A DNA stretch of 64,000 nucleotides from an uncultured Planctomycetia bacterium (GTDB lineage: Bacteria; Omnitrophota; Gorgyraeia; Duberdicusellales; 4484-171): contig CAZVQU010000001.1 of assembly GCA_964629655.1 (NCBI GenBank), positions 228,056 to 292,055 of the forward strand. The letters run 5' to 3'. Positions 42,001 through 60,000 of this stretch are shown here, in pieces (position 1 is the first letter of the stretch; the number at the start of each line of letters is the position of its first letter). Made by a program: the position numbers.

Positions 42001-45000
42001 CTTAATTGTCTCTTTGCTGGGTGCTTTTCTTTTACCATTCTCGATGTCATTCAGGTAAGAGGCAGAAATCCCTATCAGACGAGAAAGTTCCCTTTGCCCG
42101 ATTCCTCGTGTTGCTCTTAAAAGCCTTACATACTTACCAAATCCTACTTTTTTCTTAGCCATATCTCTAGTGTTCGCTAATAGGTTAACACTTCCCACCC
42201 ACCTCTGTCAAGCACTTTTTTCAATATTCTAAAAGAATCCGGAAATCTCTAATATATGTATGGCTTTTAGGAGTTTTTCAGAGGCCTTAAATGCTTAGAA
42301 TAAAGCTATTTTTTTGCCTGTTGTCCAATCCATTTATATGTTTTCTCTAACCCTTGTTCTAAGCTAATTTGAGGTTCCCAGTTGAGAATTTCTTTTAACT
42401 TTGCATTGTCACTATTTCTTCCCCGAACACCTTGGGGTTTTGATAGATCATGCTTCTTGGTTATTCTCTTACCGGCAATTTTAGCTATAATATCTACTAG
42501 CTCATCTACCGTAACTAGCCTATCTTGGCCTAAATTAAGAGGCTGTAAATAATCAGATTGCATAAGGCGAAATATTCCTTCTACGCAATCATCAATGTAA
42601 CAAAAGGAACGAGTCTGTTTCCCGTCACCCCAAACTTCTATATCATCTTCATCTTTTGCTAAGGAAATTTTTCGACAAATTGCCGCCGGAGCTTTTTCTT
42701 TCCCACCCTGATAAGTCCCTAAGGGACCAAAAATATTATGGAAACGTACCATGTGAGTTTTAAATCCATAATCTTCTGTATAATACTGACAGGCTAACTC
42801 GGAAAATAGCTTCTCCCATCCATAACCCGGTTCAGCATCCGCAGGGTATGCGTCTTCCTCCTTTAGCATCTTTACGTTAGGGTCTTTCTGTAAATATTGA
42901 GGATAAACGCAGGCTGAACTTGTATAGAGATAATTTTTTACTCCTGATTTTCGGGCAGCTTCAAGCATATGCAGATTTATTAAAGCATTGTTCCTAAGAA
43001 TTTCTGCATGAGAGGCAGTGATATAGCCAATACCACCCATATCTGCAGCAAGCTGATAGACCTCATCTATTCCCTCACAAGCTTTCATGCAATTATCAAA
43101 TTCACGTAAGTCTAATAACTTAAAATCATCGGCAGAGGTTTCCTCAAACTCAGGATTCTTTACATCATCCCCTCTTACCCAATAACCTTTCTTCTTTAAA
43201 TACTTTACTAAGTGATGCCCGATAAAACCACCAGCGCCGGTAACTAATGCTCTTCGCTTCTCCATGCTGCAACCTCCTAACTCTTTCCTTTTCCTAAATA
43301 TTTGATATTTGCTTCTAAATCCTTACCCTTAAAGATTCCCCAACAATCTAATATGCAAGTTCCTCTCTTTAAATCGTTATTGTTTATTTTCTTAAACTCA
43401 TCCCAAGGTGTCGTCACTAATAAAATATCAGCTTCTTTAGCGCATTCCTTACTACTCTTGGCGTATTTAACTCCGTCACCCAAAACGCCCCTGACTGCAC
43501 CTAAGCTTTGAGGATCATAGACTATTACTCTATACCCTTCGTTAACTAAAAGTTCCACGATATCTATAGCTTGTGAGTCTTCAATAATTGGCGTATTGGG
43601 CTTATATGATAATCCCAATACTCCTACGACAACTTCATTTTTTGTTTTATTTAAATCTTTAACTAAATCTTTTACTATTTCCTCAATTCTTCCTACCTGA
43701 TCCCTGTTTACCTCATCTACCATCTCCGCCAATTTTGCTTTCTCTCCAACCTTTCTGGCAAAGGCAGCAAAAGCTACGTTATCACGGGGAAAACATGGTC
43801 CGCCAAAGCCCAATCCCGGTTTTAAATACTTCTTGCCAATACGAGTATCCATTCCAATTGAACTAGTAATCATTCCTGAATCAGCTTCAGGTACTTTCTC
43901 GCAGATAGCAGCTAAAGAATTTGCATAAGTTATCTTCATGGTGACATAACAATTAAGTGAAATTTTAGCAATCTCAGAACTTACCAAATTCATCCTGCCG
44001 AATTTAGGCTTATTATCACAGGTGTTCTTGTAAATTTCCTCTAAAATATCTCCATCCTTCTTGTCAATTTCACCAATTAGAAGAAAATCAGGATTTAAAA
44101 AATCATGGATCACGCTTCCTAAAGCAATAAACTCAGGATTGTAAGCTATCCCGAAATCCTTACCACATTTTTTCCCTGAGGTTTCTTCCAGTATGAATTT
44201 TCCAACATGCTCTGAGGTTCCCGGCATAACTGTAGAAGTAATAACCACTAAATGGTAACCATTTTTATTCTTTAGAGCCGAGCCTATTGCTTTTAAAGAC
44301 TCTTTGAGTTGCTGGTTAGAAAAAGAACCATCAGCCTCTGAAGGCGTCGCAACAACAATAAAAGTTACCTGGGAATTACTAATAGCTTCTCTATAGTCAG
44401 TAGTTGCTTTTAAATTGTCTTTACATTTTTTCAAAGTTTCAGTTAAGTCAGTCTCGGAAATAGGATTCTGGCCTTTATTTATTAAATCTACCCTATGGCT
44501 ATCAATATCTACCCCGATTACTTTATGACCCTTGCTGGCAAAGCAAGCTGCCGAACATAATCCTAGTTTACCTAACCCGACTACAGATATGCTTTTCATC
44601 TTAATACACCCCCTATACCTCTGCAGATCCTGTATTACCATACAGAAATGCTTTAATTCCCACTTTTATCTCCCTAATGTCTTCAAAGGCCTTATGAGGA
44701 TCTTGCAAATACCACCTGAGACGCTGCAAAATCCAGATTGGTCTTAAGTAAAACTTTCTATAAGCCCTCTTCTTAGCATCGATAAGTTGTTTTAAAGTTA
44801 TTCCTTTGGGAAGATAGACCGGCCAAAAGCTATGGGCTTCATACCCGGTTTTTTTGTTTACAAATTTATCAATAATGTCTTTATCAATAATTCCCTCTTT
44901 TATGGCTTCATCGTAAAGAATTGAACCTGGTTGTGGCCAAGTAATATGAATACCCATAAAATCAGCTCTTGTCTTGGGGCCAAAATTAATCGTATCATTA

Positions 45001-57000: not shown

Positions 57001-60000
57001 ACATTAAAACAACACCAAAAATTAATTTTCCAAAAGTTGAAACAATGCCTATTAAAGAATAAATAACAAATTTCTGAAAACTCTGGAAAAGCGAAATAAG
57101 CGGGGGAGAAAACAAGGATATCGCAATACCAACCCCACAAATAAGAGCATATAACGGCTGGGTCTTTAAAAATCTGGCTAAAAAAGGAGAAATTACGAAA
57201 AATAACCCCACAACTAAACAAGCAGCAACAAATAACCGTTTTATGATCCTTTTAAAAACAAAAAAGAGAGTAGTAAAATCTTTTTTAGCAATATATTCAG
57301 TAAAAAAACGAGTCAGAGTTGTCCCTAAGGGTGAAACCGCCATAGAAGAAAGCATAACAAAAGAAATAAGGGCATTTAAGGTTCCATAATCTTCAGGGGA
57401 AAGCAGCCGTACTGAGACTAAATGATAAAGAAGATTAAATGCACCAACTAAAGCAGTCCCCAGAAAAACAATTGCTGCATGTAGTATGAGATCATCTCTG
57501 AAGAATTTTTTTATCTTGTTTTTCATTTCTTCTTCCTAAAATCCATTATATGACCAATAACCTTTAAGAATGCTCTACCAAAATACTTAACATCATCTAT
57601 CTCTCGAATACTGATTATTTTGCGCAAGATAAATTCAGGATTAAAACTTACTGAATACATCCCTTGAACAAGTTTAAGAAGCTCCCCAGGACTAAAGTTT
57701 AATTTCATTACCGGGTTCTTCATGTCATAGTAAGACCAATCATGGCTAGCCAGTAAATCCTTCTCCTTACACTCCTTGAAAAGGGGTGTTCCTGGATAAG
57801 GAATTACAACCGTTGCCTGCATAGTATAAGCGTAGTCTTTTTTCAATAACCATCGGCCTAAGTCTAAGGTCTTCTTAGCATCTTGATAGCTCTCCCAAGG
57901 ATAGCCAAACATCATAGTTATATGAGGATAAAGGCCTGCACGTCTTGCATCCTTGCAGGACTGGATAATATCCTCTACTTTTAAATTCTTATCTATTCGA
58001 TCTAAGGTGCTTTGATTTGCTGACTCAATACCAAAAAGCAGAAATCTAAAACCGGCTTTTCTCATTAATTTATACCCTTGAAAGTCTACGGCGCCAAAAC
58101 GCATATTGCAATCAAGATTAATTCTCTTATTCAACTTCCTGGTAATCATCCCTTTGCAAAATTCCTCCAGCCAGGCCCCCACCGGAAAAGTTCCGGTATC
58201 ATCCATGATTTCTTTAATTGAATAATCATCCACCAAATATTCAACCTCATTTAGAACATTTTCAACGCTTCTTGAGCGAAATTTCGGATAAAGAGTAGTC
58301 CAGCTGCAAAACCGGCATTTTCCCCACCAACAATCTCGGCCACTCATTATGTAGGTACCTGGCCGACGACGATAATTCCCGTTCTTATAAGCATAGAATC
58401 TCCATTTGGTTAAATCTCTATCTATGAAGGGAAGGGAATTTAAATCGTGATTTAATTGAAACTGGCCAGTATTTTTGACTTCTTGATTCTCTCGATACCA
58501 AATACCATTCTCTAACCCTTCTAAAGGAAGTGATTCTCTTAAAGCAGTACAAAGATTAAGTAGAAGAAAATCATAATCTCCGCCGGTTAAAACAAAATCA
58601 ACAGAAGAGTTTGCAAAAGATTCATTCGGCAATGCAGTCACGTGATCACCGAAGAGAAGAATCTTAAGGTTTGAATTGTTGGCTTTAATCTCATTAATAA
58701 GCTTCCACTCTTGTTGAACTACTGGAGTCTTAGCCTCAAAAGCAATTAAGTCAAAGATCTCCTCTTTTATTATCTCCAAGAATCGCTGATAAGAGATATC
58801 CTCAGCAATACAATCGAGCCAGCTTACTTCAAAACCATTCTCCTTAAGTAGGGTCGCAGCTTGAGCCGGAACTACTGGATAAATATAGGTTGGTTCTTTA
58901 AAATACTGGAATTGCCGGTTTTGGCCTAAAGTAGGCCACCCTTTTACAGAACTTAGTGGTGGAAAGCAGATAAGTATCTTCATGTTTCTTTTTCTTCTTC
59001 AGGCATTTTTTTAGTCAATAACCCCTTCATAAAATAAATACCATAGGTGATATGAGTTAAAAAGATACCTGGAACTGTTAAAAATAATAACTTAATTCTA
59101 TTTCCTAGACTCTCTCCAGCTGCAAAAACTAACGAAAGGCTGCTTGCCAAGATAAAAACTAAATAGATAGCTAAAATAAGAGAGTACACGCCTTCGGCCA
59201 GAGAAGAAGACAAACTTGAAATTCCTCCAGTTAATAGGGCTATAACGAAAAGAGACGGGATAAAATACTCAAAGCGTAAAGATGTTTTAGGGTATTTTTT
59301 AGCAAAATATCCCCGATGCAAAGCATAGCTCTTAATCTGATTTAAGTGGCCTTTAAATAAATTACGCCGATGGTGATAGACCAAAACTTTAGGACTGTAA
59401 ATCATCCTTTTGCCTGCCTCTAAAACCTTCAAGCACAAAAAGGTGTCCTCTCCAGGCCAAAAAGGCTTATCAAATCCACCCACTTGATTAAAAAGATCTT
59501 TTCTTATCAAAAAGTTACAACTGGGAAAATCAAAAACTTCTCTTCTCGTCCCAAGGACATACCTAAAGCTATAGTTTCCTGAAACTAACGGAGAAGCGTA
59601 AACTAAGCCACTCCCCTTTTGAAAAATAGAATCACCTTCAGGGGTTACCGCCGGACCACAAACACAACCAATACTATCGCTCTCTCTAAATATCAAAATT
59701 GCTTCCTTTAACCATTCTTTTGTTGGGTAGGCATCGTCATCTAAAAAGGCAAGGATTTCTCCTTCTGCTTCTTTGGTTCCGATATCCCGTTTCTTTGGCG
59801 GGGTAACATTTCCGGTAGGAATTATTCTTATCTTTGGGTGAGATAGAATATCCTCCTGCGAAAGATTCGAGTCTGGCAGGATTAGTATCTCATAATCTTT
59901 AAAATCAAGCTCCAAACACTTATTTACGCACTCTTTTAAATTCTCGCAATAAGCCTTTACGGCGATGATAATCGATACGATCATAATACTTTAAAATATA

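Follow-up and report, generated by a model that had tools for sequence, protein, structure and literature searches.

The window analysed here, a stretch of 64,000 nucleotides from an uncultured Omnitrophota bacterium (contig CAZVQU010000001.1, positions 228,056 to 292,055), carries three genes for cobalamin (B12)-type radical S-adenosylmethionine (SAM) enzymes, which we call rSAM1 (44613..46031), rSAM2 (48709..50235) and rSAM3 (57523..58983). The polynucleotide phosphorylase (PNPase) of the window (20183-22264) agrees with the phylum, since all but one of its named homologues at 63-77% identity carry the label Candidatus Omnitrophica or Omnitrophota. The first-pass annotation had placed three open reading frames (ORFs) at exactly these coordinates, and they were recovered there, all on the minus strand, encoding proteins of 472, 508 and 486 aa, respectively. 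They belong to one long minus-strand operon of Wzx/Wzy-type glycan genes that runs from approximately 28.7 kb to the end of the window at 64 kb. Neighbouring operon genes overlap by 4-14 nt or are separated by gaps of 2 nt, which indicates translational coupling, and the G+C content (0.34-0.41) is even along the whole window, so composition gives no hint of recent acquisition. An initiating phosphoglycosyl transferase (Bac_transf), a flippase-like protein and two Wzy_C proteins (87.5 and 59.2 bits) are all encoded in the operon, and the Wzx/Wzy setting described earlier was thus confirmed. The neighbours named at the time, namely glycosyltransferases (four GT2 and two GT4 by Pfam), RfbA- and RfbB-like enzymes, a DegT-family aminotransferase, a class I methyltransferase and the flippase, were all present as well, together with three short-chain dehydrogenases/reductases (SDRs) beyond the RfbB-like gene, an NDP-sugar 6-dehydrogenase and a CDP-alcohol phosphotransferase. 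Together these genes represent the core of a recurrent glycosyltransferase-coupled radical tailoring cassette for a surface glycan, which occurs in uncultured bacteria of several phyla and on one archaeal-like contig.

Each radical SAM gene has close partners. GT2b (58980..59984, minus strand; Pfam GT2) overlaps the start of rSAM3 by 4 nt, and GT4a (50238..51398, minus strand; Pfam Glycos_transf_1, 108 bits) ends 2 nt from the start of rSAM2. rSAM2 is followed on the same strand by the DegT-family sugar aminotransferase (47538..48722; Pfam 438 bits), which is ArnB/PseC-like but scores below both NCBIfam cut-offs (ArnB 403.8 against 631 bits and PseC 355 against 423.5 bits). The immediate neighbour of rSAM1 is the class I SAM methyltransferase (46034..46765, minus strand; Pfam Methyltransf_25/11/12), and beyond it, upstream, lies the CDP-alcohol phosphotransferase, a membrane protein (46762..47541, minus strand; PF01066, 37.1 bits against a cut-off of 22).

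All three radical SAM proteins share the class-B layout, in which an N-terminal Rossmann/B12-like domain precedes the radical SAM barrel. The Pfam Radical_SAM domain (PF04055) scored 93.8, 72.8 and 61.6 bits, and the B12-binding domain (PF02310) 65.5, 69.1 and 34.1 bits, in rSAM1, rSAM2 and rSAM3, respectively. Both domains, proposed earlier as the check on these assignments, therefore exceed their gathering scores in all three proteins; for the B12-binding domain, whose gathering score is 32.1, the margin is approximately twofold in rSAM1 and rSAM2 and marginal in rSAM3. The Fe-S cluster motifs read CPYACTFC in rSAM1 (195-202) and CPFNCSFC in rSAM2 (198-205), while that of rSAM3, CWWGKCRFC (218-226), has the variant spacing Cx4Cx2C. 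Pairwise identity among the three is 22-26%, and clustering of all radical SAM ORFs from the related loci described below gave three clean orthogroups. They are therefore old, separate orthogroups, paralogous at the superfamily level and not as recent duplicates. Each has its own partner, which speaks against the iterative action by recent paralogues that the first-pass annotation had suggested.

Curated families gave a mixed picture. The best NCBIfam matches were ApyD (167 bits), BchE (153.7 bits), HpnJ (146.0 bits) and PhpK (132 bits) for rSAM1, PhpK (95.4 bits), HpnJ (90.7 bits) and BchE (89.9 bits) for rSAM2, and HpnJ (161.9 bits) followed by BchE (120.8 bits) for rSAM3; the top families thus combine HpnJ and BchE (non-methylating or of unknown function), PhpK (methylating) and ApyD. 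The equivalog cut-offs of HpnJ (TIGR03471, 577.6 bits) and BchE (TIGR02026, 481.35 bits) lie well above these scores. The same holds for the PhpK-family P-methyltransferase model (TIGR04479, 132, 95.4 and 71.9 bits for rSAM1, rSAM2 and rSAM3 against 600), the Sden_1168 family (NF038361, 112.4, 54.4 and 51.3 bits, in the same order, against 575) and the AprD4-family radical SAM diol dehydratase (NF033070, 111.7, 31.9 and 28.8 bits against 500). PDB sequence matches were remote (AprD4, MgmA/QCMT (9CCB), OxsB, TsrM and TokK). AlphaFold2 models of rSAM1 (pLDDT 90.6) and rSAM3 (pLDDT 91.3) share an alpha/beta domain at the N-terminus and resemble TsrM, OxsB, TokK, MgmA and CysS. In structural comparisons with the PDB, the rSAM1 model was about level between TsrM (TMq 0.68) and AprD4 (TMq 0.69, TMt 0.72), while the rSAM3 model fitted AprD4 best (TMq 0.74, TMt 0.78) and MgmA, TsrM and OxsB less well. 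AprD4 dehydrates a sugar 1,2-diol and, although it has a Rossmann-like domain, binds no cobalamin (PMC12931638). Because AprD4-type network neighbours are cobalamin-free, a Pfam B12-binding match alone is no proof of cobalamin binding. From their domains, rSAM1 and rSAM2 are nevertheless credible cobalamin binders.

Related loci were traced via orthologues of rSAM1 (L004, L005, L006, L090, L091 and L092) and of rSAM2 (L093, L094, L095 and L096), and orthologues were mapped across a set of ten loci comprising the window, L004-L006 and L090-L095. The cassette recurs in at least ten loci, which belong to Omnitrophota, bacteria of the candidate phyla radiation (CPR) and one Methanoperedens-like (archaeal-like) contig; the specificity for lipopolysaccharide implied by the first-pass annotation is therefore not supported. 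Orthologues of rSAM1 (453-681 bits) were found in all six loci traced through it, those of rSAM2 (547-737 bits, 50-76% identical, the named ones being from CPR bacteria) in L090, L093, L094 and L095, and those of rSAM3 (535-632 bits) in L004, L005, L006, L091, L093 and L095. GT4a orthologues occurred in nine and DegT orthologues in eight of the ten mapped loci. The rSAM3 orthogroup is rare: of 1.84 billion cluster representatives, approximately 32 score above 300 bits. In six of ten independently retrieved loci, an rSAM3 orthologue (≥535 bits) is nonetheless no more than 10 kb away from an orthologue of rSAM1 or rSAM2. This rarity, combined with the recurrent nearness, argues that the association is real and no chance effect.

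The gene content of these loci varied around the shared core. L004 contains orthologues of rSAM3 (545 bits), the window methyltransferase (152 bits), rSAM1 (681 bits), GT4a (423 bits), DegT (405 bits), the nucleotidyltransferase described below (235 bits) and the CDP-alcohol phosphotransferase (132 bits), as well as PhnD-PhnC-PhnE. L091 (rSAM3 535, GT2c 223, GT4a 206 and rSAM1 505 bits) likewise has PhnD-PhnC-PhnE, a nucleotidyltransferase, a CDP-alcohol phosphotransferase, DegT, a methyltransferase and a SPASM radical SAM gene. A Wzx, a methyltransferase and a SPASM radical SAM gene are shared by L005 (rSAM3 632, GT4a 370 and rSAM1 515 bits) and L006, from a Patescibacteria metagenome-assembled genome (rSAM3 568, GT4a 261 and rSAM1 476 bits); L005 adds a carbamoyltransferase and two more B12-type radical SAM genes, and L006 adds SDRs. 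L090 has GT4a (341 bits), an rSAM2 orthologue joined to a GT4 domain (547 bits), rSAM1 (643 bits), DegT (486 bits), a SPASM radical SAM gene, a CDP-alcohol phosphotransferase, a split thiamine diphosphate-type decarboxylase, an Fe-type alcohol dehydrogenase (Fe-ADH), a nucleotidyltransferase and two more B12-type radical SAM genes. The Methanoperedens-like locus, L092, combines rSAM1 (453 bits) with two other B12-type radical SAM genes. Among the loci traced through rSAM2, L093 contains GT2b (247 bits), rSAM3 (601 bits), a GT2c::GT4a protein (341 and 499 bits), rSAM2 (737 bits), DegT (597 bits), an orthologue of the window methyltransferase (143 bits), UGDH, a CDP-alcohol phosphotransferase and an AprD4-like radical SAM gene. 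L094 (Doudnabacteria) has rSAM2 (667 bits), GT4a (315 bits), a methyltransferase, an SDR and DegT. In L095 (Falkowbacteria), GT2b (235 bits), rSAM3 (582 bits) and an rSAM2::GT4a protein (P0277; 606 and 309 bits) stand with UGDH, GT2c::methyltransferase, Ppd::Fe-ADH, a CDP-alcohol phosphotransferase, an SDR and DegT. Finally, L096 is a DegT/GT2/GT4 locus with an rSAM2-like protein (P0340, 40% identity).

Several radical SAM enzymes per locus are common. The related loci have one to four B12-type radical SAM genes, and seven of ten have three or four, so the window's three, regarded as unusual in the first-pass annotation, are typical of this locus type. SPASM radical SAM genes are additionally present in five related loci. 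Among distant rSAM1 relatives (≤36% identity), at least two B12-type radical SAM genes were counted in 31 of 86 loci, some with up to nine; this count derives from a contig scan with the rSAM1 alignment, whose motifs are generic to the superfamily and which was saturated. A metagenome contig scan with rSAM1 returned three matches only, all distant.

Two observations on radical SAM genes of the related loci may be added. In four of six loci, a SPASM/twitch radical SAM gene adjoins the rSAM1 orthologue or is close to it (L005:11438-12529, L006:8323-9345, L090:1450-2544 and L091:8874-9971); that of L004 is approximately 10 kb away at the locus edge, and the window has none. Three of them form one orthogroup without a curated family match, and an assignment as BtrN-like sugar dehydrogenases was rejected for lack of the diagnostic NCBIfam match. 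Furthermore, inteins (Intein_splicing domain) interrupt five of the 13 best rSAM3-family cluster representatives (P0376, P0377, P0380, P0385 and P0388), four of them with a LAGLIDADG homing-endonuclease domain as well. They are inserted within or straight after the Fe-S motif (approximately 218-226 in the window's rSAM3), at two or more distinct points.

The link to glycosyltransferases is physical in several loci. In the window as well as in L093 and L095 (orthologues 235-247 bits), rSAM3 is directly preceded by GT2b, and in the latter two loci UGDH orthologues come before the GT2b-rSAM3 pair. rSAM2 and GT4a form a single polypeptide in the Falkowbacteria genome (L095, P0277), and rSAM2 is fused to a GT4 domain in L090. 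GT4a is joined to GT2c (53273..54109 in the window, minus strand; Pfam GT2) in L093, GT2c to a class I methyltransferase in L095, and the rSAM2-like protein of L096 (P0340) also to a class I methyltransferase. The fusions thus make a linked chain, rSAM2-GT4a, GT4a-GT2c, GT2c-methyltransferase and rSAM2-like-methyltransferase. In addition, a class I methyltransferase adjoins the rSAM1 orthologue or the CDP-alcohol phosphotransferase in most loci, although only L004 and L093 yielded orthologues of the window's own. The fusions to glycosyltransferases and class I methyltransferases tie the radical SAM enzymes to glycan tailoring, and we infer, as the simplest reading, that each would act, in concert with the methyltransferase, on whichever residue its partner glycosyltransferase handles. 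Two narrower assignments of the partners were tried and set aside. The window methyltransferase could not be assigned as a sugar N-methyltransferase, its PDB matches being generic class I enzymes with only weak matches to phosphoethanolamine N-methyltransferases (22-27 bits), and GT2b-rSAM3 was rejected as an HpnI-HpnJ pair, as GT2b has no HpnI-like match and is best matched by MftF (90 bits).

Beside the rSAM1 block lies a phosphonate module that was absent from the first-pass annotation. It comprises a PhnCDE importer, a putative LicC/PntC-like cytidylyltransferase and the putative CDP-alcohol phosphotransferase. The phosphonate-type ABC importer (PhnD, PhnC and PhnD::PhnE; 37059..40310, minus strand) exceeded the NCBIfam cut-offs for PhnC (300.8 against 266.1 bits), PhnE (275.4 against 216.7 bits) and the PhnD subfamily TIGR01098 (173.9 against 112 bits); its score for the PhnD equivalog TIGR03431 (184.9 bits) is short of the cut-off of 261.1. 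The phosphonate-type binding protein occurs twice, as free PhnD (39441-40310) and in a PhnD::PhnE permease fusion (37059-38624), both on the minus strand. A DUF2490 protein (40332-40979, minus strand) separates the transporter from the nucleotidyltransferase (41044..42198, minus strand; Pfam HTH_3 and NTP_transf_3), which carries an N-terminal XRE-type helix-turn-helix (HTH) domain that is missing from the 254-aa orthologues of L004 and L091. The best PDB match of the nucleotidyltransferase, and its best solved relative, is LicC (1JYK, 65.8 bits), a CTP:phosphocholine cytidylyltransferase, followed by 6PD1 (34.4 bits), while NCBIfam matches were generic and below cut-off. The deposit title of 6PD1 is "Nucleotidyl transferase/aminotransferase, class V", and we take it to be a phosphonate cytidylyltransferase fused to a 2-aminoethylphosphonate transaminase. 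The CDP-alcohol phosphotransferase is located upstream, at a distance of three genes from the nucleotidyltransferase.

Parts of the module are conserved elsewhere. The PhnD-PhnC-PhnE-nucleotidyltransferase block was kept in L004 and L091, and CDP-alcohol phosphotransferase orthologues were found in L004, L090, L091, L093 and L095. In L095 (6896-9154), a Ppd::Fe-ADH fusion stands beside the CDP-alcohol phosphotransferase in the importer's place; its Ppd part is a bona fide phosphonopyruvate decarboxylase (TIGR03297, 493.9 bits against a cut-off of 312.5). L090 (10288-12880) has a split, near-threshold version of Ppd together with an Fe-ADH. Ppd and an alcohol dehydrogenase constitute a route to 2-hydroxyethylphosphonate. 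Given an importer or Ppd, a LicC-like nucleotidyltransferase and a CDP-alcohol phosphotransferase, a small phosphonate, whether taken up or synthesised by the cell, is probably attached by way of a CMP-linked intermediate. As Fom3, a B12-type radical SAM enzyme, methylates CMP-activated 2-hydroxyethylphosphonate (PMC8158854), one of the radical SAM enzymes might act on the phosphonate head group. The CDP-linked head group entertained in the first-pass annotation is hence a real possibility. Candidates for phosphoenolpyruvate (PEP) mutase, a 309-aa protein of L090 and proteins of 528 and 321 aa of L095, gave no such signal in Pfam, NCBIfam or PDB sequence searches.

The remaining operon genes, all on the minus strand, complete a glycan pathway. 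At the upstream end are the initiating phosphoglycosyl transferase (63346..63987; PF02397, 225.3 bits), a Wzy_C-type polymerase or ligase (60708..61937; PF04932, 87.5 bits) with approximately ten transmembrane (TM)-like segments, and GT2a (59920..60711; Pfam Glycos_transf_2, 130 bits), a polyprenyl-phosphate glycosyltransferase-like GT2 whose top NCBIfam matches (PgfS, ArnC-type, AglJ and PpgS) are all under cut-off. Downstream of rSAM3, the Wzx-like flippase (56252..57526; 12 TM-like segments) just misses the gathering score of Polysacc_synt (26.8 against 28.2 bits), whereas its orthologues of L005 and L006 have PF01943. It is followed by two SDR-type NDP-sugar dehydratase/epimerase-like genes (55197-56255 and 54103-55221; Pfam Epimerase and GDP_Man_Dehyd), which are dTDP-glucose 4,6-dehydratase-like by NCBIfam at scores below cut-off, and, beyond GT2c, by the RfbA-like nucleotidyltransferase (52416-53285; Pfam NTP_transferase, 247.6 bits) and the RfbB-like 4,6-dehydratase (51420-52370; GDP_Man_Dehyd 265.4 and Epimerase 237.4 bits). 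Between rSAM1 and the phosphonate genes lie the NDP-sugar 6-dehydrogenase (43277-44641; 360.6 bits on the NCBIfam NDP-sugar dehydrogenase subfamily model, whose cut-off is 189.8) and an SDR epimerase-like gene (42306-43265; Pfam Epimerase, 164 bits). Further downstream glycan genes (31423..36877; Pfam) encode GT4b, the second Wzy_C protein, a GDSL esterase/acyltransferase-like protein and a NodU-like carbamoyltransferase (NCBIfam NodU 128 bits, under cut-off). The last three (31423-35657) suggest that this glycan or a second one is O-carbamoylated or O-acylated; L005 also has a carbamoyltransferase. A 682-aa protein with approximately 14 TM-like segments (28747-30795) marks the downstream end of the operon, and its candidacy as a GT-C glycosyltransferase was rejected because it has no match in Pfam, NCBIfam or the PDB. 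The fourth radical SAM gene of the window (15906-17180, minus strand), adjoining ftsK, encodes a housekeeping RimO-type methylthiotransferase (PDB 4JC0, 280 bits) unrelated to the glycan locus.

Characterised systems resemble the cassette in part. GenK and GenD1/GntE of gentamicin biosynthesis share the B12-domain plus radical SAM layout, and their pathway likewise combines a GT4-type glycosyltransferase with a DegT-family aminotransferase and a class I methyltransferase. However, their substrates are soluble aminoglycoside pseudo-oligosaccharides, whereas a Wzx/Wzy lipid-linked glycan is made here, and they are not fused to a glycosyltransferase. Both appear among the Csp3 methylases that act on carbohydrates (PMC12931638). 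AprD4 of apramycin biosynthesis is similar in fold and in its Rossmann-like N-terminal domain, acts on a sugar substrate, and would find candidates for the follow-up reduction in the SDRs here; in contrast, identity in the fold alignments is 15-19%, and a B12-binding domain is still recognised by Pfam in rSAM1 and rSAM2. HpnJ, which acts on an amino sugar installed by a glycosyltransferase, is the best HMM match of rSAM3 and its orthologues over full-length alignments (161.9 and 147.1 bits), yet these scores are far under 577.6, GT2b has no HpnI-like match and the window has no hopanoid genes. A 2026 review groups HpnJ under "other or unknown transformations" (PMC12931638).

For the phosphonate module, the closest parallels are the fosfomycin system and the phosphonyl tailoring of surface glycans. 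The former is similar at the level of the locus, with cytidylyltransferase and B12-type radical SAM genes, joined by Ppd and Fe-ADH in the relatives of the window, and a CMP-activated small phosphonate is the likely intermediate. Fosfomycin is, however, a released antibiotic, whereas the phosphonate here is apparently imported by PhnCDE and moved to a glycan or lipid by the CDP-alcohol phosphotransferase; furthermore, equivalents of FomD and Fom4 were not seen and PEP mutase was not found. The PntC/LicC systems (Rice et al. 2019, PMC6697681) likewise have a LicC-like nucleotidyltransferase in a glycan neighbourhood and find a counterpart in the bona fide Ppd of L095. They differ in that a PhnCDE importer here replaces biosynthesis by Ppm/Ppd, that a CDP-alcohol phosphotransferase (PF01066) replaces the LicD-type transferase, and that the module lies among B12-type radical SAM genes. 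That paper, searched by term, mentions neither radical SAM nor Fom3, nor a transporter or scavenging.

Taken together, we tentatively favour, as a reading somewhat short of probable, a cassette with three glycosyltransferase-coupled radical tailoring enzymes, two of them probably cobalamin-dependent methylases and one probably a non-methylating enzyme of the AprD4/HpnJ type, whose glycan also receives a CMP-activated phosphonate. The radical SAM enzymes would act in the cytoplasm, before Wzx flips the repeat unit, and their substrate would be the sugar newly added to the lipid-linked repeat unit by the partner glycosyltransferase, or the nucleotide precursor of that sugar. A 5'-deoxyadenosyl radical would take a hydrogen from an unactivated carbon. 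Given the solid B12-binding domains of rSAM1 and rSAM2, the most likely outcome for these two would be that methylcobalamin donates a methyl group, as it does in GenK, GenD1 or Fom3, alongside amination by DegT and N- or O-methylation by the class I enzyme. The degenerate B12-like domain of rSAM3, its fold closest to AprD4 and its sequence closest to HpnJ make non-methylating chemistry more likely there, which may be dehydration/deoxygenation with a neighbouring SDR, or rearrangement. Orthologues of rSAM3 often fall under the B12-binding gathering score (no match in L093, 22 bits in L095), which, with the marginal score of rSAM3 itself and AprD4 as its best fold match, renders cobalamin binding by rSAM3 doubtful. 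In parallel, the cell would take up a small alkylphosphonate and convert it to a CMP ester, from which the phosphonate would pass to a hydroxyl group of the glycan or of its lipid; alternatively, rSAM1 may methylate the CMP-phosphonate in place of a sugar.

Several findings weigh against this reading. None of the three proteins reaches any curated NCBIfam cut-off (480-750 bits), and the cobalamin-free AprD4 equals or beats the methylases as a match for both models. AprD4-type proteins, moreover, share the same sequence network without binding cobalamin (PMC12931638). The class I methyltransferases beside the rSAM1 orthologues are not all mutually orthologous. On the phosphonate side, the signature of CDP-alcohol phosphotransferases is D-x2-D-G-x2-A-R-x8-G-x3-D-x3-D, and the window protein reads DGxxAQ, with glutamine for the arginine that all five orthologues have; all four aspartates are kept. 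No single radical SAM orthogroup strictly tracks this transferase across the mapped loci, and no PEP mutase was detected within 10 kb of the Ppd genes of L090 or L095 in Pfam, NCBIfam and PDB sequence searches. Neither CPR bacteria nor Omnitrophota would be expected to synthesise cobalamin. Finally, the function of every member is predicted from sequences and models.

A first group of alternatives concerns whether the three enzymes methylate at all. It is conceivable, though somewhat unlikely in our judgement, that none of them methylates and that all act otherwise on sugars, through AprD4-like 1,2-diol dehydration with an SDR finishing the deoxygenation, HpnJ/OxsB-like ring contraction, or epimerisation or oxidation, the N-terminal Rossmann domain being structural or the cobalamin used otherwise. 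AprD4 is indeed not only the best fold match of rSAM3 and level with TsrM for rSAM1, with the highest TMt (0.72), but also the best PDB sequence match of rSAM1 (87 bits), and it shows that a Rossmann-like domain can be cobalamin-free (PMC12931638). HpnJ and BchE take the top two places for rSAM3, places two and three for rSAM1, and places two and four for rSAM2, and the operon has several SDR genes. L093 even encodes an unmistakable AprD4-like radical SAM protein (206 bits), but this protein has no B12-binding match, whereas rSAM1 and rSAM2 score 65-69 bits; scores for the AprD4 family itself are far under its cut-off, and the adjacent or fused class I methyltransferases suggest a methylation-rich pathway. 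The opposite view, that of the first-pass annotation, holds that all three are cobalamin-dependent C-methyltransferases placing several C-methyl groups on one nucleotide sugar or repeat unit. The shared class-B layout agrees with it, as do the conserved DegT and class I methyltransferase neighbours, which recall how garosamine is made for gentamicin by an aminotransferase, an N-methyltransferase and a B12-type radical SAM enzyme. C-Methyltransferases also account for most of the class members characterised to date, GenK, GenD1 and Fom3 among them (PMC12931638). We consider it unlikely, however, given the marginal or undetectable B12-binding domain and AprD4/HpnJ-like character of the rSAM3 family, the unmet cut-offs of the curated methylases, and the low mutual identity and different partner glycosyltransferases, which point to three different substrates or reactions instead of iteration. 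That annotation had staked its proposal on methylating clades and a B12-binding domain; rSAM1 and rSAM2 have the domain, rSAM3 is marginal and closest to AprD4, and the proposal is on this count neither sustained nor overturned. Overall, its reading is partly supported.

Two further explanations relocate the substrate. At least one enzyme, most likely rSAM1, could act on the phosphonate head group before the CDP-alcohol phosphotransferase step, either methylating a carbon of a CMP-alkylphosphonate, as Fom3 does, or methylating phosphorus in the manner of PhpK. The phosphonate module itself is real, Ppd and Fe-ADH, the route to the compound that Fom3 accepts once CMP-activated, are encoded in L095 and probably in L090, and rSAM1 is one gene from the CDP-alcohol phosphotransferase in the window, adjoins it in L090 and lies three genes downstream in L091. 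PhpK-family and Sden_1168 P-methylase models are among the rSAM1 matches (132 and 112 bits), and another B12-type radical SAM protein of L090 reaches 201 bits on the latter. Nevertheless, the P-methylase scores of rSAM1 are far under the cut-offs, and its orthologues in L005, L006 and L092 have no CDP-alcohol phosphotransferase, nucleotidyltransferase or PhnCDE within 10 kb, which makes this option improbable. More radically, the radical SAM genes could be passengers that share the operon and modify a peptide or a membrane lipid instead of the glycan, since their best NCBIfam matches include ApyD, an enzyme of ribosomally synthesised and post-translationally modified peptides, and a lipid (ladderane) B12-type radical SAM family, and CDP-alcohol phosphotransferases are classically lipid enzymes. 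Against this stand the fusions to GT4 glycosyltransferases, the tight translational coupling in the glycan operon, the synteny with glycosyltransferases, DegT, UGDH and Wzx kept in ten loci of different phyla, and the listed gene products of the loci, none of which is a precursor peptide or a lipid-synthesis enzyme; we regard it as very improbable.

A full-text literature search combining B12-type radical SAM with O-antigen, polysaccharide or glycosyltransferase found no paper that places such enzymes in the synthesis of surface polysaccharides. If the favoured reading of glycosyltransferase-coupled tailoring is right, C-methylation or deoxygenation of lipid-linked glycans would constitute a new class of surface-sugar modification and, for class-B radical SAM enzymes, a new class of substrate. 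The natural fusions of rSAM2 with GT4a and of the rSAM2-like protein with a methyltransferase offer concrete enzyme pairs, and the module for phosphonate import, activation and transfer predicts a phosphonate signal on the glycan in 31P nuclear magnetic resonance. In its widest form, which we hold to be fairly unlikely, uncultured bacteria that live as episymbionts or depend on a host (Omnitrophota and CPR) and possibly some archaea would share an unrecognised pathway, in which glycosyltransferase-coupled, cobalamin-dependent radical SAM enzymes C-methylate or rebuild lipid-linked sugars and a scavenged, possibly methylated alkylphosphonate is then added as a cap via a CMP intermediate and the CDP-alcohol phosphotransferase. 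If these organisms make no cobalamin, their surface structure would depend on cobalamin and phosphonate supplied from outside.

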